Below are positions 934 through 10,959 of a stretch of 24,646 nucleotides of DNA, one piece after another; position 1 is the stretch's first letter; each line of letters opens with the position of its first letter. Origin of the DNA: a virus (Duplodnaviria; Heunggongvirae; Uroviricota; Caudoviricetes); the IMG/VR virus record IMGVR_UViG_2663763286_000010, positions 1 through 24,646 of that record; one strand, written 5' to 3'. The notes below the pieces were generated by a model. The model was not told where the DNA came from and did not search any database. It saw only the letters and a list, made by a program, of their open reading frames with translations. Made by a program: the position numbers and the translations under genes.

Positions 934-2363
934 TCCTCCTCATACGAAATATTAAAGGTGGAGTTTTCTGTATCCAGATAAACGAAATCGTAAAAGCCGT
1001 TGGACTCATTCCACTCGACAAATTCCAGATAAAAGTCGCGGAAATAACCCAGCGTTTCGATAAACGCCCAAACGTCTTTTTTCTTAATCAGGATGTACTT
1101 CCCGACGCGGTTCGGATCAAAGAAAGTTGAGTCGCGCCCAAATTTTGTTTCCAGTGCCGACTTCAGCTCATCGGTCACATTCTCAATGGTCAGGCTTGCC
1201 GATATCCGTCCGGTGATGGTTATCTTAAATGGTAGTTTTCTGACCTCCTTATACGAGAATTTCTTGTTCAACTCATTCGGCACCTTCTTAAAGGCAGCCA
1301 GGATCATTTCTTCAAGCTCTGACTGGCTTTTATTTGGATGCCACCCTGAAATAAATATCTTATTGATATTCCGAACATTATAAGCACCATCTAATTTCTC
1401 TTGCTGGCCTTCGCCCCATGCCTTTACCCATGACAGTCCCGGGATGTTACGCACCAGAAAATACGTATAGTCCCCGCCCCATACGACCTGATCATCATAG
1501 GCAAGGTAATATTGTGCACGGTTACGTGTGATCTCCGTTGTTTCGGCATCGGTACCTGCGGTTATAGGTGTCGTTGTCTTAACTGAAATCAAATTAGCTA
1601 AATTAGCCGCAGAATCGACAGGCGTCAGGTTTTGGCCAGCAACCAGGGTTATATCGCCGTTGGTGCACCATACCTTAAGCGTAATGGTCGAGCCTTCTGG
1701 CGGTATTTGCCCAATTAGCCCATCACCGAATCGAACCCCCAACTGCTCGGATGGTTTATAAAACTCAACGTAGACCTGGCTTTTACTACCGGCTAACCGG
1801 AACATAGTGCTGGAAGACCACTGCGTGGTCTTACCATCGGTCGTCACGAATACTTCCAGCTTATAGCAGACAGCAGTGAGAGCCTTTGATAACACGACTT
1901 CCAGAAATTCTTTGGCTACCGTAACGGTATATGTCACCTCCTGGATTTCCAACTGTGCCACTTCTACCGTACCGGTGCCGTCAACCAACCTGCATACATC
2001 CATAGTCATGTAAGGGTACTGGTCGTCAGATATTAAAGGCATGTTTTTGGGGATTACCGCTGGGGCATCTTCACTTGTGGCGGTGATCTCAATCATCCCC
2101 GATGACGGTGTTGGCTTGGTACCAACGTAACTATTCGTTTCTGCCGCTGCCAGGATAGAGGAACGCCGCGTCGCGGTCGATATAAAGCCTTCAGCCAGCG
2201 CCGCATCGGCATACTGAAAGCACCTGTAGACAATCTGGGTAATAAACAATGTCAGCATCGAGACAAATTGAGAGCCGACAAACTTCGACCAGAATGAATC
2301 TTTCTCGACAAGCTCTTCGAACTCTGCACGAATACTGTCTTTAGTCGGTGTTGTTTTACTCAT
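930..2363 (-). CDS. Putative baseplate protein (position of P1 BplA)
   Basis: 477-aa ORF in the minus-strand tail block immediately downstream of sit and the 119-aa gene; overlapping stop/start junctions (ATGA at 2360-2363) typical of a phage morphogenesis operon. The name is by synteny with P1, not confirmed. Confidence 0.5.
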   Translation of the reverse strand: MSKTTPTKDSIRAEFEELVEKDSFWSKFVGSQFVSMLTLFITQIVYRCFQYADAALAEGFISTATRRSSILAAAETNSYVGTKPTPSSGMIEITATSEDAPAVIPKNMPLISDDQYPYMTMDVCRLVDGTGTVEVAQLEIQEVTYTVTVAKEFLEVVLSKALTAVCYKLEVFVTTDGKTTQWSSSTMFRLAGSKSQVYVEFYKPSEQLGVRFGDGLIGQIPPEGSTITLKVWCTNGDITLVAGQNLTPVDSAANLANLISVKTTTPITAGTDAETTEITRNRAQYYLAYDDQVVWGGDYTYFLVRNIPGLSWVKAWGEGQQEKLDGAYNVRNINKIFISGWHPNKSQSELEEMILAAFKKVPNELNKKFSYKEVRKLPFKITITGRISASLTIENVTDELKSALETKFGRDSTFFDPNRVGKYILIKKKDVWAFIETLGYFRDFYLEFVEWNESNGFYDFVYLDTENSTFNISYEEE

Positions 2364-2719
2364 AGCACCACGTCCTGTGTGATAGTTATATCCCTGATAC
2401 GAATGGATATTTTCAACTTATCAAAAGCATCTCCCTCGGCTACTGACAAGCCAGAAATCGGTATGTCAGGTAAATCTACCGTCAGTTTTTGCAACAGCAT
2501 TGCCTCAACCGCAATTTGAACATGCGACAAGTTGGTCGGTTCGTGTTTAAACTGCGGTAAAACATTGCCCCATGACGGATCTCCGTATACCTCACCCTGA
2601 TAAGTGTTTAGCCACTCATATAAACGAGCGCCCCAGGCCTCCTCCTGGGACTCATACGTTTTTACGCCGGATAACTCCAGCGTCAGCAAAGGATCAATTT
2701 CGTTATTGTTGGCCATCAA
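2360..2719 (-). CDS. Small tail morphogenesis protein (position of P1 PmgA)
   Basis: 119-aa ORF translationally coupled to sit upstream and the 477-aa gene downstream; no recognisable motif. Confidence 0.45.
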   Translation of the reverse strand: MMANNNEIDPLLTLELSGVKTYESQEEAWGARLYEWLNTYQGEVYGDPSWGNVLPQFKHEPTNLSHVQIAVEAMLLQKLTVDLPDIPISGLSVAEGDAFDKLKISIRIRDITITQDVVL

Positions 2720-5136
2720 TCAACTCTCGCGTAGTCATTCATCAACGGATCATCAATTGACAGTGGCACCGTGCGCATAACGCCCGGTTGAGGCGTGCTG
2801 ACCTTTACGACAGTTCCCTGGCCTTTCGCCGAGTCTTTAGTGTGCTCTTCAATCCTGGCGAGCAATGAGGTCATCTGCGCAAACAGCCGCTTCGTTTCAC
2901 CATCAAGTGAAACGGTATTATCAGCCAACTGCATTGTCGGCTTGGCACCGGAGCCGCCAAGGTCACTAATAACCTGTCCGTCTATCTGCATACGACCGGT
3001 TGGTTGCTGCAAATCGTTGGCGGCAGTCGTCACCAGGGACGTGGAGGCTGGTTCAGGCGCATTATTTTTCCGCATCCCCGGCGAGTTGCGGAGTTTATCG
3101 AATAGTCCATCAATCCCCATTTGTGCGCCGAGTTGGTCAAAGTAACTTGAGTTGCTGGCCACCGGACGCGCCTCTTCAACTGGCATCGGAGTATCAACAT
3201 ACACATTGCCAGCTGCTGTTGCGGTCCCCTTCCCTCGTGCACGTTCTTCGAGCGTTCCCTGAACGACTTCCCGACGCATACCCCGGCCATTCATGAATTT
3301 GTTGACCAGATCGTTAACACCAACAGCATTGCCAATTTTGTCTACCAGACCGCCTTTCTCAAACGGGCTATCACCAGGGGTAAACGCCAGGCCAGTAGAC
3401 TGATCGATAACAGCGTTATCAGGTATCTTTTCGTGAATTGCTGGTGCGCTATGATCTACCTTAGAGCCATAAACGGCACCATTATTGAGCATCTGCTGAT
3501 ACCCTCTGACACGAGTAACATATTCGCCGGTACCGGCGACTACTCTCCCCTTATCAACATGCCCCATACCAGCATGATAGGCAGCTATTGCACGACCCTG
3601 ATCACCGTTATAACGGTTCATCAGCATACTTAGGTATCTGGCGGCACCATCAGCTGCTTTTCGTGTATCCATGGCATCAGCATCGCTGAGTCCAAGATCC
3701 TCCCTTGTACCTTTAGTGATCTGAAAAGCCCCAAGGGCAGATGAAAGTTTGTTCCCGTTTTTGTCTACTGGATTTCCAGTTCTCTGGCCTGCACTAGACT
3801 CTGCGGATGCAACTGCTGACAGAATCCCTTTTTCAAGCCCATACTTACGTTCAAGCTCATCAAAATAATCGGCATTGTCAGAAATCCATTGGTATCCGGC
3901 AGCATTTAATTTTGGCAAAGAAACATCCTTGCCATTGTTAAATCGACGTTTATCTATCTCATATGCACTTAATGCTTCCTCCTTACCTGTAGCAGACTGG
4001 CCCAAGGCAGCATCAATTGTTTGTGCTGCTTTATTTCCTGTTTCTACGGCATTTGCATTGATAATCTGATTAGCAGTTTCTTTAACTGTTTTATTGCTAT
4101 CTTTCGCCATATCCAGGGCCGCATTTATCACGCGGGCAGCAATATTAGTCTGTTTGGCATCGGATTCAGCTTTAGAATCAGATGTCCCCTGCTGGCTATT
4201 AACCGGAGCTTTTAACTCTGGAGTGATTTCTTTCGCATTAGCCTCGCCGATCGGATTGGGTATTTTTGATACAATCATTGCCGCAGGGGTATTTTTAACG
4301 GCATCAACCGCTGCATCTAATGCTTTACCTGGTAAATTTTTAACCCCATCCCAAATATTACTAGCTGCCTCTTTAATGTGTTTCCCTGGGTTCTTAATGA
4401 AATCAATTGCACTATCAATTGCATCACTGAAAACCTGTTTCAGGTTATCGACAGTAAAGAAGTCTTTGATGGCATCCAGCTTTTCAAGCAGCTTATTAGA
4501 TGTATCGCTAAACCATGCTGAAACAGCATCACCAATCTTTGCTGTGTAATCATCGAACTTGGTAGAAATGGTGTCGCCAAGGTTAGAAATATATGTTTCT
4601 AAGTTGGTAATCCCACTATCAATGGCCTGGGCAATACTTTCCGTCGAAAATGATTGCAACATATTGCCGATATCCTCAAATCCAAGTGATTTGAGAACAT
4701 CACCAATAGCACTGCTAATACCAGATACCAGCCCCCCCAAATCAAGAACATTGGCTAACGTATAAGCGGCTTTTTGCTGGAATGATGGATCTTGTCCTGA
4801 TTTAAGCCCAAACGCTCGACGTTGCGCTTCTGTATCATTCCAACCGGTTACCGCATCATAAATACCTCCAGCCACTGTGCCGACTAGGGGAATTGCGCGT
4901 AACGCCCCTTTACCAACTGCCTTTAATCCAAGTTTACCTGCTGCCCGGGCAGCCAAATCTCCGCCTTCATGGGCGAGAGTCTTCTTGCCACCACCGCGTA
5001 GCATTCCTACAAGTTTCTTTGCCCCCAGAGCGCCAAAAGCGAGTGCTCCAGCTTTTTTCAGCATGCCACGCCCCATTAACAACGACGCGACGCCACCGGC
5101 CCCCTTCCCTAACAGGCTAAATAATTTGGACAGCAA
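2716..5136 (-). CDS. sit: Sit-like tail tape-measure / structural injection transglycosylase, C-terminal segment with lytic transglycosylase (SLT) domain; same reading frame as 5284-6081
   Basis: 806-aa ORF with Gly/Ala/Lys-rich N-terminus and an SLT-like segment (ILSAVASAESSAGQ...GAFQITKGTREDLG...AAYHAGMGHV). The listed start at 5136 is TTG; the frame is open up to a TAA at 5284-5286. Confidence 0.85.
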   Translation of the reverse strand: MLSKLFSLLGKGAGGVASLLMGRGMLKKAGALAFGALGAKKLVGMLRGGGKKTLAHEGGDLAARAAGKLGLKAVGKGALRAIPLVGTVAGGIYDAVTGWNDTEAQRRAFGLKSGQDPSFQQKAAYTLANVLDLGGLVSGISSAIGDVLKSLGFEDIGNMLQSFSTESIAQAIDSGITNLETYISNLGDTISTKFDDYTAKIGDAVSAWFSDTSNKLLEKLDAIKDFFTVDNLKQVFSDAIDSAIDFIKNPGKHIKEAASNIWDGVKNLPGKALDAAVDAVKNTPAAMIVSKIPNPIGEANAKEITPELKAPVNSQQGTSDSKAESDAKQTNIAARVINAALDMAKDSNKTVKETANQIINANAVETGNKAAQTIDAALGQSATGKEEALSAYEIDKRRFNNGKDVSLPKLNAAGYQWISDNADYFDELERKYGLEKGILSAVASAESSAGQRTGNPVDKNGNKLSSALGAFQITKGTREDLGLSDADAMDTRKAADGAARYLSMLMNRYNGDQGRAIAAYHAGMGHVDKGRVVAGTGEYVTRVRGYQQMLNNGAVYGSKVDHSAPAIHEKIPDNAVIDQSTGLAFTPGDSPFEKGGLVDKIGNAVGVNDLVNKFMNGRGMRREVVQGTLEERARGKGTATAAGNVYVDTPMPVEEARPVASNSSYFDQLGAQMGIDGLFDKLRNSPGMRKNNAPEPASTSLVTTAANDLQQPTGRMQIDGQVISDLGGSGAKPTMQLADNTVSLDGETKRLFAQMTSLLARIEEHTKDSAKGQGTVVKVSTPQPGVMRTVPLSIDDPLMNDYARVD

Positions 5137-5283
5137 GCCGCCCTTCTTTTTCCCGGTGTTTTTGGCTATCTGATCAAGGGCGCTGAGAATCTTGTCATTG
5201 CCCTCTTTAATTTCGCTGGTCTGATCCTGAAGTTCCTGAACCGTCCGTTTTTGGGTGTTAACCTGAACGACATCGGCACTATT

Positions 5284-6081
5284 TTACGATTTACGCCTAA
5301 AAAAACCTTTTCTACGGCTGTTATCGTCATTGCCACGAATCACATCGGCAATAGACTTTCTGGCACCATTAAGCGATCCACCAACTTCTTTTGATATCCC
5401 GCCAAGCTCCTTCCCTGCGGCCCACAATGGACCAGCAACGGCATAACCTAACGCATCGACGGCACGAGTCTCTGAAGGGTTACCTATGCCTTCAGCTACT
5501 TTTGACAGTTTTTTTAATAAACCTGATTCAGCATTTAGACGCTCATCATCCTCTTTGCGCCTGGCCTTTTCAGCACGGGCATCTTCCGCTGCGGCCTTAC
5601 TCCCTGACTTTCCAATAAAACGACCACGCGCATCGCGTTGGTTTTGGCTTTTTTGCGCACCGCCTTTTTGACCGAACATTTCGCGAGCGTGTTCGGCTGC
5701 TTCGGTCCGTTGCGCCTTTACATCTTCTGTTATAGCCTTCTTGCGTCGTTTTTTACCCTTTCGCGTAGTTGATTTGGCCTGCGGTTCCTGTAGAGCAACA
5801 TCCTCCTGAACTACACGAGAAACGTCCCCTAAATTAAGCCGTTTCATTGCCTCAACAATAGGGTCCACTGATGGCGCATTGGCCACAAAGTCTGGCCGGG
5901 AATTTTCGATTGTGCGATTTAATGCCGACACACTGCGAGAGACAGGATCAACTGTAGCAACTCGCCCCCCTTTCAAATCTTCAACGGCTTCCCGAATACC
6001 TGCAAGCTCTTCCAGCTCTTTTGCGCTGGCGGTTTCAACCGTCCTTATCACATCGTCAATGTTGGCGTTTTTTCTTTCCAT
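5284..6081 (-). CDS. sit: Sit-like protein, N-terminal segment (265 aa), terminated by an in-frame TAA that separates it from the 2716-5136 segment
   Basis: Same frame as 2716-5136 ((5284-2716) is divisible by 3); translating 5137-5283 by hand gives 49 sense codons and no stop. The stop lies next to an A7 run (5299-5305). Confidence 0.7.
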   Translation of the reverse strand: MERKNANIDDVIRTVETASAKELEELAGIREAVEDLKGGRVATVDPVSRSVSALNRTIENSRPDFVANAPSVDPIVEAMKRLNLGDVSRVVQEDVALQEPQAKSTTRKGKKRRKKAITEDVKAQRTEAAEHAREMFGQKGGAQKSQNQRDARGRFIGKSGSKAAAEDARAEKARRKEDDERLNAESGLLKKLSKVAEGIGNPSETRAVDALGYAVAGPLWAAGKELGGISKEVGGSLNGARKSIADVIRGNDDNSRRKGFFRRKS

Positions 6082-7680: not shown

Positions 7681-8288
<608 letters not shown>

Positions 8289-8401
8289 TTGTCATTTGTT
8301 ACCGGTCAGTCTACACATTTCAGATACTACGTTAAAACAACTCAAGTGCTTCAAGTAGCAAATCGCCATCAACACCCAGCCCAAAGATGCGGAGATAAAA
8401 T

Positions 8402-9586
8402 TCAAGCCTTAAGAGGCTTTGTGTATGTTCGAGGAATCCATCCAGTAATAAACTCATCCCCTGATTTAACCTGCACGTAAAGCCATTGACGATCTTTCTT
8501 ATCTAAAATAGCAACAATTGTGTTTTTGCCAATGCATTCAATCACTTCACTATTTAAAGAAGGACTGACATGTAATCTTACGTTATCACCAGTTATAAAC
8601 CTAAAGCCATTGAGATCTTCCCACTTAATTTCTGTATTTTCTTTAATTAATTTTTGTTTTGATATTGGTGCATCCTCATATAGGGATACAGAATATGATT
8701 CTGTCTTGTGTATTTGCGATAAGATTTGTTCTTTTGCATAATCAGCAATAGCGCCAAGCACCACTTCTGTCAAAAGCCACATAATAATAAACTGAAGCGG
8801 GTGAGGGAGCGACTTAAATGAATCAATGAACGTCGAACTGGATTTATTTAATTCTTTGTCTTGAACATCACTTTCGTTGTGAGATGTTTCAATAGCACCT
8901 TCGACATAAGCCTGTGCAATTGATGAAAGACTTTGCTCCATTATTTGATGTAATGAAGCCTTTTGCGCAAGGGTATATTGTTTTAATGATTCTGTTATTT
9001 CATTATTTAAATCTATCTTATGACTTACATTTTGTCGCAATTCATTAAGCATTGCTTGCATGTTATTTAAACCAGCTTGCTTAGTAAGCATCTCGAACTG
9101 GTTTCGTGACGGCATAGCAATTTCTGCCTGTTTCCTTAGCATTTGAATGTATTTATTGGCATCACGCGGGAAAAAAGCCAGAGCCTGTTTCTGTAAAATA
9201 TCAATATGTTTACGATACTCGTTGCCTATTTCTGCCAAATTCGGTCTATGCGAAAACTGTTTTAGAATAGAATCACTAATTAAGGCTTGTGTACTCAACT
9301 TTGCAAGTTGTTCTTGAGCATGGCGCGATATTCTTAACTGTTTTTGCAAGATTGCCATATGTTCTTTATACGATGGAATGATTGCGTTTTTTTGCAGTTC
9401 TGCCAACTGTCTAACCAAATTATTAGAAGCATATTCTGATTTTAATAAATCACTTGCCGATGTATATCCTGGCATTTTGATTTTACTTAAATTATCTCGC
9501 CAAGTAATATTTGAATCTCTATTATAGAGATCGCTTACTGAGCCAAGTGCAAGTTTTTTAATATCCTTCACTTTATTCACCGTCAT
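8402..9586 (-). CDS. Accessory membrane protein: N-terminal coiled-coil region with internal LxKQ repeats, one predicted transmembrane helix, C-terminal SH3b-like domain
   Basis: 394-aa ORF in a markedly AT-rich stretch; repeated motifs (HMAILQKQLRIS, HIDILQKQALAF, YIQMLRKQAEIA, FEMLTKQAGL); hydrophobic segment FIIMWLLTEVVLGAIADYA; C-terminus LNGFRFITGDNVRLHVSPSLNSEVIECIGKNTIVAILDKKDRQWLYVQVKSGDEFITGWIP resembles bacterial SH3 domains. The true start may lie downstream of 9586. Confidence 0.6.
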   Translation of the reverse strand: MTVNKVKDIKKLALGSVSDLYNRDSNITWRDNLSKIKMPGYTSASDLLKSEYASNNLVRQLAELQKNAIIPSYKEHMAILQKQLRISRHAQEQLAKLSTQALISDSILKQFSHRPNLAEIGNEYRKHIDILQKQALAFFPRDANKYIQMLRKQAEIAMPSRNQFEMLTKQAGLNNMQAMLNELRQNVSHKIDLNNEITESLKQYTLAQKASLHQIMEQSLSSIAQAYVEGAIETSHNESDVQDKELNKSSSTFIDSFKSLPHPLQFIIMWLLTEVVLGAIADYAKEQILSQIHKTESYSVSLYEDAPISKQKLIKENTEIKWEDLNGFRFITGDNVRLHVSPSLNSEVIECIGKNTIVAILDKKDRQWLYVQVKSGDEFITGWIPRTYTKPLKA

Positions 9587-10079
9587 CTTGCTTTAAACAC
9601 CCATCATTTTTAGCTTCCTTGTAAATACTTGAAATTCCATCAAGAGAGAATGATGTAATTCGACGCGATCCGATATATACATCCATGTTTTTTTCTTTTG
9701 TGGCTGACGCTGACTTCCAAAAAGAATACCATTCCCTACGATTTGGAGCAGTGTTTTGCGTGCCAATATTAAAGCTATCCGGACCAACAATTAAGGTAAT
9801 TACATCAGCTTTACGAGAAATTGTGTCGCGTGTAGAAAAATCAGCATTCTCTTTCCCTCCGCTTACATACAAATTTCTTCCGGCGATATGATCTTCGGAA
9901 CCTTCCCTTGCTCCAGCATCACAAGAAAAGTTAATTGTATAACCATCGTCATTGGTTGCAGAGATTTCTCTCCATCCTTGCTCACCTCCTACCGTCCAAG
10001 CGGTAGAACCTGCCATTGCTGATAATGGCAGAAAAGAGGATATTAATAAAAAGCTATACAATGACTTATACAATTTCAT
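9573..10079 (-). CDS. Accessory secreted protein with N-terminal signal peptide (168 aa)
   Basis: N-terminus MKLYKSLYSFLLISSFLPLSAMA fits a Sec signal peptide with an AxA cleavage site; overlaps the start of the downstream 394-aa ORF by 14 nt (translational coupling); AT-rich codon usage. Confidence 0.6.
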   Translation of the reverse strand: MKLYKSLYSFLLISSFLPLSAMAGSTAWTVGGEQGWREISATNDDGYTINFSCDAGAREGSEDHIAGRNLYVSGGKENADFSTRDTISRKADVITLIVGPDSFNIGTQNTAPNRREWYSFWKSASATKEKNMDVYIGSRRITSFSLDGISSIYKEAKNDGCLKQDDGE

Positions 10080-10167
10080 ATTTTTATCCTTTTGGTTTTA
10101 GATATTATAGGCATAGTCCATATTGTTAGGTCCACTATGCCCAGAGAATTTAATATTATTCATTAAA

Positions 10168-10659
10168 TTATGGAGCTACACCCGGCCCCCTGGCCCGCTC
10201 TTCAAGCGTACCCTGCACGTTTTGATGGCGCATTCCTGGGGCATTTCTGATTGAGTCAATGCCATTTCTTCCAACATCTTCTTTATTAACGGTATTGCTC
10301 GCCACCAGCACCCCCCAGCTAGGGATAGCAAAATCAGGAGCGGTTTCGCATGCCTTTACCATATAATCGAAAGAGCTTCGATTGATCTCGTTTGCGTCGG
10401 GATTTAATAGGCGAGAATATTGATATTTAGCATTTTCGTTGGTTGCGACTTTATACAGTTCTTGCTGCACCATCGCTTCAGAAAGTTTAAGGCGTTTCAT
10501 ATCTGACAGTAACTTCTTGCGCATGGATTCGTCTTGACTGACAGCAAAGCCGTAAACGTGCCCAAGGTATTTCGTATAATCGGTACAAATCTCCTTTACG
10601 CTTGATGCTGCATTAACAGTCCCAGCCATAAATAATAACGGTAGTAATAGTTTTCTCAT
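10168..10659 (-). CDS. Accessory secreted protein with signal peptide and C-terminal Sit-like motif; candidate superinfection-exclusion protein
   Basis: The ORF track gives 10168-10686, but the likely start is the internal ATG at 10659 (MRKLLLPLLFMAGTVNA signal peptide), preceded by AGGTGAGG. The C-terminus RNAPGMRHQNVQGTLEERARGPG matches Sit GRGMRREVVQGTLEERARGKG and RNSPGMRKNNAPE. Confidence 0.6.
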   Translation of the reverse strand: MRKLLLPLLFMAGTVNAASSVKEICTDYTKYLGHVYGFAVSQDESMRKKLLSDMKRLKLSEAMVQQELYKVATNENAKYQYSRLLNPDANEINRSSFDYMVKACETAPDFAIPSWGVLVASNTVNKEDVGRNGIDSIRNAPGMRHQNVQGTLEERARGPGVAP

Positions 10660-10755
10660 TATAACCTCACCTGCCTTATAACTCATTTAGGGTACATATT
10701 TTCGCCTTTAAAAAAAAGAGGTTATTAGATCTACTTGTGTATTTATTAAGCAAAC

Positions 10756-10772
10756 AATGCTCTAATAAATTT
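10756..10772 (+). promoter_or_regulatory. C1 repressor operator-like site (AATGCTCTAATAAATTT) in the divergent promoter region between the accessory cluster and c4-icd-ant
   Basis: 16 of 17 matches to the asymmetric P1 C1 operator consensus ATTGCTCTAATAAATTT as I recall it; a second copy with similar flanking sequence is at 12426-12442. Confidence 0.65.
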
Positions 10773-10959
10773 GTATTTTTAAGTCACGAATGCTATCTTT
10801 TCGCATCATATTGACCTTTTAATCGTTCAGGCTTATAGTTCCTACGTCGTAGCAAATTCTGCGACCAGGTTTGACAGCCTGAATACTTACGCGGACAACC
10901 GCACATTTCCGATATTGCGGTATTTTTGTGTCCGTAAAACCACGTTACGCCCGAATTAT

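Follow-up and report, generated by a model that had tools for sequence, protein, structure and literature searches.

A segment of the tape-measure protein Sit recurs in a predicted exported SimA-domain protein of a P1-like prophage: a possible exclusion decoy

The T4 protein Spackle (Sp) is a small exported helical protein which inhibits the tail lysozyme gp5 in the periplasm, and the prophage envelope proteins of the HK97 gp15, Ltp and Sie2009 types act at the tape-measure step and keep the DNA from entering. To our knowledge none of these proteins carries a segment derived from a tape-measure protein. Colicin E9 offers an instance of competitive mimicry by a disordered epitope, its TolB box mimicking Pal. 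Here we analyze a DNA stretch of 24,646 nucleotides (IMG/VR record IMGVR_UViG_2663763286_000010, positions 1 to 24,646; in the following the window), which is a P1-like (Punavirus) plasmid prophage. At the position of the P1 gene simA it codes for a protein of 163 amino acids with a predicted signal peptide, termed ORF-X (for open reading frame) in the following, whose end resembles a segment of Sit, the tape-measure and injection transglycosylase of the same element.

The closest described locus is simABC of P1, which lies in the same place, between pmgC with the late promoter LPsit on one side and c4-icd-ant on the other. The sim locus of P1 is known for superinfection exclusion (Kliem and Dreiseikelmann 1989, as cited in PMC9177967 and PMC8546580) and blocks, according to the literature cited in these same two papers, the entry of superinfecting P1 after adsorption. 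P1 Sim (SimC) is exported, as ORF-X is predicted to be, and the first 45 residues of ORF-X are those of P1 SimA. Unlike in P1, simB and simC are missing in the window (the SimB and SimC proteins match nothing in it), ORF-X has no sequence similarity to SimC, and P1 itself does not possess a form of the protein that bears the Sit-like segment. An earlier note on this DNA had spoken of a secreted accessory protein; the first part of this name agrees with the typical Sec signal peptide, but an accessory protein of Sim it is not, as simB and simC of P1 are absent here. With Spackle, ORF-X shares that it is a small, predicted exported and helical phage protein, and it might likewise act in the periplasm on the wall-degrading part of an incoming tail; Spackle, however, binds the lysozyme domain and carries no tail-protein segment, and between the two neither a sequence similarity nor a convincing fold similarity was detected. 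Whereas the HK97 gp15, Ltp and Sie2009 types are membrane proteins or lipoproteins, ORF-X is predicted to be soluble. By analogy with colicin E9, a short linear motif that is exported on a flexible segment may compete for the site of another protein, but the tail of ORF-X does not resemble Tol or TonB boxes in sequence.

The features that enter into this comparison are the following:

10168..10659, minus strand: ORF-X, SimA-domain protein of 163 amino acids (phrog_3933), from profile match and translation

10609..10659, minus strand: predicted Sec signal peptide MRKLLLPLLFMAGTVNA of ORF-X with cleavage before ASS, read directly from the sequence

10306..10608, minus strand: conserved all-helical N-domain of ORF-X with invariant Cys25 and Cys104 and the motifs CTDYxKYLGH and IPSW

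10180..10296, minus strand: Sit-like module in ORF-X (NTVNKEDVGRNGIDSIRNAPGMRHQNVQGTLEERARGPG), core GMR..GPG at 10180..10236

2716..6081, minus strand: sit, tape-measure/injection transglycosylase (SLT domain, E = 1.3e-14; phrog_2533), with a TAA interruption at 5284..5286

3202..3357, minus strand: complete copy of the module in Sit (KGGLVDKIGNAVGVNDLVNKFMNGRGMRREVVQGTLEERARGKGTATAAGNV), immediately behind the SLT domain

3061..3117, minus strand: further copy in Sit, limited to the first half (GIDGLFDKLRNSPGMRKNN), about 65 residues beyond the module (BLASTP, E = 0.004)

The translation of ORF-X finishes with ...IRNAPGMRHQNVQGTLEERARGPGVAP (longer end segment ...GIDSIRNAPGMRHQNVQGTLEERARGPGVAP), and the matching stretch of Sit, ...NGRGMRREVVQGTLEERARGKG..., is encoded at 3226..3288 within the wider module context ...LVNKFMNGRGMRREVVQGTLEERARGKGTATAAGNV...; a second match, ...LRNSPGMRKNNAPE..., follows at about 3052..3090. 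The earlier note had aligned the C-terminus of ORF-X with these two neighbouring Sit segments and we find the same, with coordinates that agree within a few bases. The quoted segment is real, but it comprises 23 residues followed by VAP, not 22 residues, and, with its upstream part included, the homologous stretch measures about 40 residues in ORF-X (10180..10296) against about 50 in Sit (3202..3357). A BLASTP comparison of ORF-X with Sit gave 17 identities in 29 positions (E = 9e-8, and E = 0.004 for the second copy). The Smith–Waterman score of 88 is well separated from those of 2000 shuffled versions of ORF-X (mean 37.6, standard deviation 5.3, maximum 65), and for the 45-residue tail alone a Gumbel fit yields a p of about 6e-8. 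The full-length, untruncated homologue P0003 and the Sit protein of P7 share 23 of 47 residues (49%, E = 8e-9). On the profile level the matches are reciprocal, a SimA-like homologue matching phrog_2533 (Sit) with E = 1.2e-7 and Sit matching phrog_3933 with E = 3.9e-6, and the match of ORF-X itself to phrog_2533 is confined to the roughly 40-residue module (E = 3.8e-5, profile positions 929-963 of 1130). Given the shuffles and the E-values a chance similarity can be rejected. A homology over about 100 residues, at which a tblastn search had hinted, was also rejected because the longer alignment adds no score (42.4 versus 42.0 bits).

On the nucleotide level 39 of 57 positions are identical between GMR and GPG (68%) and 25 of 33 in the identical core VQGTLEERARG (76%), so that the previous figure of about 75% was right for the core. 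All eight base differences in this core are synonymous and all 11 amino acids are identical; we therefore conclude that the copy of the module is old and has been kept by selection. The synonymous core differences together with the identity of 68% over 57 nucleotides rule against a recent duplication or gene conversion, as the earlier note had also held in speaking of conserved homology. It is almost certain that the module is a real and selected element common to ORF-X and Sit.

An alignment of divergent Sit and SimA-like segments defines a module of about 50 residues with the pattern ..G.K....(I/L).S(D/E)(E/K)F.N..GMR(H/Q)x.V(Q/E)G(T/S)L..RA.G.G(T...MGN(L/V)). A HMMER search with the module profile in 1.84 billion representative proteins returned 10 matches at E<=0.001, namely Sit-like and SimA-like proteins, their fragments and one spurious repeat protein; the module is private to these two families. 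In a word-indexed search with the module profile only 64 candidates were obtained, and the matches were fragments. The module is present once in every Sit orthologue examined, including the Salmonella/Klebsiella types (50-57% identity to P1 Sit) and a lineage with 44% identity, and when Sit is divided into windows of 30 residues it ranks among the seven best conserved (0.82 versus 0.64 overall). The additional half-copy is found in the E. coli P1-type Sit and is absent from the Salmonella/Klebsiella type. All members of the SimA family have the first half, F.N..GMR(H/Q)Q; the second half occurs only in some lineages and has given way to unrelated tails (PS..S.EFKSC...) in others.

Among the divergent SimA-like genes synonymous sites are saturated (dS), and the nonsynonymous divergence (dN) is 0.16-0.6. 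In the deepest comparison, between the window and a SimA-like gene of IMGVR_UViG_2871745582 (locus L090), identity amounts to 67% in the module as against 39% in the N-domain. In this element the SimA-like gene is about 16 kb away from sit and on the opposite strand, and both genes keep NAPGMRHQ..GSMA(E/D)RA. Purifying selection acts on the module in both proteins. One may also think of a functionless relic, a fragment of sit which illegitimate recombination brought into the sim locus long ago and which has since been carried along as a passenger at a mosaic junction: the sim region of P1-like plasmids is hypervariable region 4 and mosaic (PMC9603915), the allele junctions described below coincide with the ends of the module, and many family members lack half of it. 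Such a passenger is very improbable, however, in view of a core that has retained every amino acid through eight synonymous changes, of a module that at deep divergence holds its sequence better than the N-domain does, and of its persistence where the SimA-like gene and sit are unlinked.

ORF-X has a GGTGAGG Shine–Dalgarno sequence before the ATG at 10659, with an alternative upstream ATG at 10686. It matches phrog_3933 with E = 5.3e-114, residues 1-162 aligning to profile positions 1-162 of 213, and a collection of 5.8 billion proteins contains 29 homologues, some of which are labelled 'simA domain protein'. The invariant motifs of the SimA domain, CTDY.KYLGH, LSEAMV and IPSW, are all found in ORF-X. 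The signal peptide is kept in all members of the SimA-domain family with N16 and A17 being invariant, and behind it comes a conserved domain, about 110 residues long, in which two cysteines are invariant. Signal peptide and cysteines fit a periplasmic protein, and from its sequence ORF-X is predicted to be Sec-exported and soluble in the periplasm. In the AlphaFold2 model (17-sequence alignment) the all-helical domain has a predicted local distance difference test (pLDDT) above 90, and the module region scores about 46-58. In a model of the SLT and module region of Sit the pLDDT of the module is below 50 and its packing on the SLT domain is unreadable. Judged from these low values the module probably lies in a flexible segment of both proteins.

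No Pfam, NCBIfam or PADLOC family matched ORF-X and no known defence family was found; no solved structure was matched by sequence, and fold searches with the N-domain gave nothing convincing. A PTP-like phytase (PF14566) was considered and rejected, as the match stays below the cutoff (26.2 versus 27 bits), the AlphaFold2 model is all-helical and not alpha/beta, and Cys104 is followed by ETAPDF without an arginine at +6 (no CX5R). ORF-X has neither a match to the SLT domain nor the long architecture of a tape-measure protein. The long SimA-domain gene is present in 114 of 5426 complete E. coli genomes (about 2%), almost always on P1-like plasmids, and a scan of genome contigs gave only four loci. 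It sits in the sim locus next to c4/icd/ant; the exception is the divergent element of L090.

The comparison of the alleles is informative for the position of the module. P1 SimA has only 52 amino acids and diverges from ORF-X after ...GHVY, where at about 10520 of the window the DNA homology to P1 also stops; we therefore regard P1 SimA as the truncated remnant of a longer protein. Set against the long SimA-domain family, the P1 SimA span (window 10520..10686, L001 11913..12071) comprises only the truncated N-terminus, with the signal peptide and about 28 further residues; in P1, simB and simC have taken the place of the remainder. P1 SimA is annotated as 'putative superimmunity accessory function'. 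The alleles of 163 and 215 amino acids have virtually the same sequence (about 98% identity in the N-domain) as far as the last G codon of RGPG, past which they are unrelated. The allele of the window ends three codons past RGPG and has no C-terminal extension (profile positions 163-213). The motif is thus at the C-terminus, as the earlier note had it, in the window allele, but only because the truncating replacement falls exactly at the end of the module, and the commoner allele of 215 amino acids continues for about 50 residues. As the junction follows directly on the module, the module was kept while the downstream sequence was swapped. The truncated allele is recurrent, P0001 representing 153 member sequences. 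Several versions of the 215-residue allele (P0002, P0004, P0007, P0008 and P0020) have tails which resemble frameshifted translations of the same DNA; they derive mostly from Logan assemblies, and either errors of assembly or genuine frameshift variants near or past the module may lie behind them.

In Sit, the SLT region directly in front of the module (3421..4035, minus strand) is a swapped cassette with 34-36% identity to the P1 and P7 versions and almost identical flanks. In the IMG/VR loci the SLT variant tracks the type of the sim cassette: of 9 loci with the 163-residue allele 8 have the window-type SLT, of 19 with the 215-residue allele 18 have the P7-type, and all three with the simA remnant of P1 have the P1-type. 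These observations bear on the idea that ORF-X is a direct inhibitor of the Spackle kind, whose helical N-domain would bind and inhibit the SLT domain of an incoming Sit; the Sit-like tail, as a copy of the segment next to SLT in cis, would dock the inhibitor there and would not compete for a partner of the host. The protein is small, predicted to be exported and all-helical with two invariant cysteines, its module follows directly on the SLT domain in Sit, and the association of cassette and SLT variant just given speaks for it as well. The N-domain does not track the SLT domain, however, since it is about 98% identical among alleles whose associated SLT variants share only 34-36%, and the association may merely reflect linkage, the two loci being about 7 kb apart. 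We consider this direct inhibition rather unlikely.

The architecture of both proteins is also compatible with a shared handling signal, in which the module would be read by a common factor (a periplasmic protease, a chaperone or peptidoglycan) or would form a linker or cleavage site, and would serve the phage's own biology, such as the processing of Sit after ejection or the release of the variable SimA-like tails, and not exclusion. A constant N-domain is followed by a conserved motif and by interchangeable tails with junctions exactly after GMR(H/Q)Q or RARGxG, in Sit the module stands where the swappable SLT cassette meets the C-terminal part, and in both proteins it is predicted to be flexible. 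Yet no protease or chaperone motif was recognised and there were no Pfam, NCBIfam or PADLOC matches, the allele of the window has nothing past the module that could be released and is nevertheless common, and a handling signal does not account for its being carried by an exported protein of the immunity region. Its likelihood appears low to us.

We tentatively favour the view that the tail of ORF-X is an old copy of the Sit module which is displayed in the periplasm and acts there as an exclusion decoy. In a lysogen the exported ORF-X would show the Sit module in the periplasm. When an incoming P1-like tail releases its Sit into this compartment, the module of ORF-X would already be waiting there and would compete with Sit for the docking partner of the module, candidates being a component of the envelope or of the peptidoglycan, the SLT domain or Sit itself. 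As a result the passage through the cell wall or the entry of the DNA would be impaired, that is, a decoy of virion-protein origin would bring about superinfection exclusion. The low-confidence, probably flexible tail is what one would expect of a short interaction motif on display. We put forward the exclusion mechanism as such with somewhat more reserve than this view as a whole. That P1-family prophages in general exclude their relatives with an exported decoy derived from the tape-measure protein, the module marking the site with which Sit engages the envelope or itself, is a wider proposal and a doubtful one at present.

Several observations weigh against a decoy. The exclusion of P1 maps to sim (SimC), and P1 SimA, the remnant of 52 amino acids, does not contain the module. 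About half of the variants of the family are without the second half (VQGTLEERARG) and keep only NxxGMR(H/Q)Q. A co-variation between SimA-like proteins and their resident Sit was not significant in a permutation test with six non-independent pairs (identity sum of the own pairs 94, permuted mean 87.8, fraction 0.053), and the GSMA signature common to the SimA-like gene of L090 and the sit of the same element (L091) is a single site only. The AlphaFold2 alignments are shallow (15-17 sequences), which is why disorder of the module is a weak inference, and Sit is not resolved in the cryo-electron microscopy structures of P1 of 2026 (PMC12810830). Finally, as regards expression in lysogens, a promoter scan gave no more sites than shuffled sequence.

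It is already known that the SimA-domain family is annotated, with no function given, and that there are exported prophage proteins aimed at the injection apparatus. In the searchable literature we found neither a mention of the similarity between SimA and Sit nor a described exclusion protein with a tape-measure protein as its source. Should the decoy be real, it would be such a protein and open a way to study how P1 delivers its genome; P1-like plasmids also disseminate resistance genes. A module that occurs only in Sit and in an immunity-region protein predicted to be exported is a precise target which can be mutated in both.

The surroundings of ORF-X are those of P1. The segment 10520..11500 is 95% identical to the simA-c4-icd-ant1 region of P1, the minus strand carries pmgC, tub, pmgB, sit, pmgA and bplA in the P1 gene order, and ORF-X adjoins c4/icd/ant upstream of the late promoter LPsit. 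The gene is the first of a three-gene cassette with the following further features:

9573..10079, minus strand: second cassette gene, YfjT-like protein of 168 amino acids, exported (phrog_3429), from profile match

8402..9586, minus strand: third cassette gene, protein of 394 amino acids with a C-terminal bacterial SH3 domain (phrog_7086)

8404..8419, minus strand: terminator-like hairpin that closes the three-gene cassette

8279..8297, minus strand: late-promoter-like site which resembles LPsit of P1 (AAATGACAACTCGTAGAAT, in P1 AAATGACTACTCGTAGAAT) and precedes pmgC

Since the hairpin and the LPsit-like site stand between the cassette and pmgC, ORF-X is outside the late tail operon. The two companions of ORF-X (8402..10079, minus strand) are two more envelope-type genes. 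Homologues of the YfjT-like protein in related loci are annotated PF27224:YfjT; the protein of 394 amino acids scores 26.7 bits with SH3_3 (cutoff 27) and has a possible membrane segment. Mimicry of tail proteins was not found in the other proteins of the sim locus (YfjT-like protein, SH3 protein, SimB and SimC of P1, upf50.x of P7). The cassette is present in at least 35 PLSDB plasmids, counted as records with at least 80% coverage of the query 8300-10800 of the window, which spans the three genes. In phage Ro157c2YLVW the cassette comes with the 215-residue allele; its YfjT-like gene is divergent and the SH3 gene is missing. The distant element IMGVR_UViG_2871745582_000001 has been followed in two stretches, 10001..10531 with the SimA-like gene (L090), which adjoins other exported or membrane ORFs, and 2001..5372 with sit (L091), whose product is 44% identical to P1 Sit. 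A related contig with the same type of Sit (L089) has no gene between an ORF of 166 amino acids and pmgC, the place where the sim locus would be expected.

Two peculiarities were noted in the sit gene of the window. Its in-frame TAA (5284..5286) is CAA (Gln266) in P1 and in the close relative NZ_AP027490 and divides Sit into ORFs of 265 and 806 amino acids; there is no identical PLSDB record, and sit is intact in the relatives. According to a CRISPR interference study sit is essential in P1 (PMC10695390), and the prophage is therefore probably tail-defective, or else the TAA is a sequencing error. In the N-terminal part of sit at about 5480..5500 (minus strand) there is furthermore an in-frame length difference of nine bases, P1 having ...AEDARAERAEKARRKED... 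where the window has ...AEDARAEKARRKED...; this difference sets the window apart from P1 and from most plasmids, a query of 801 bases matching 810 bases in the relatives.
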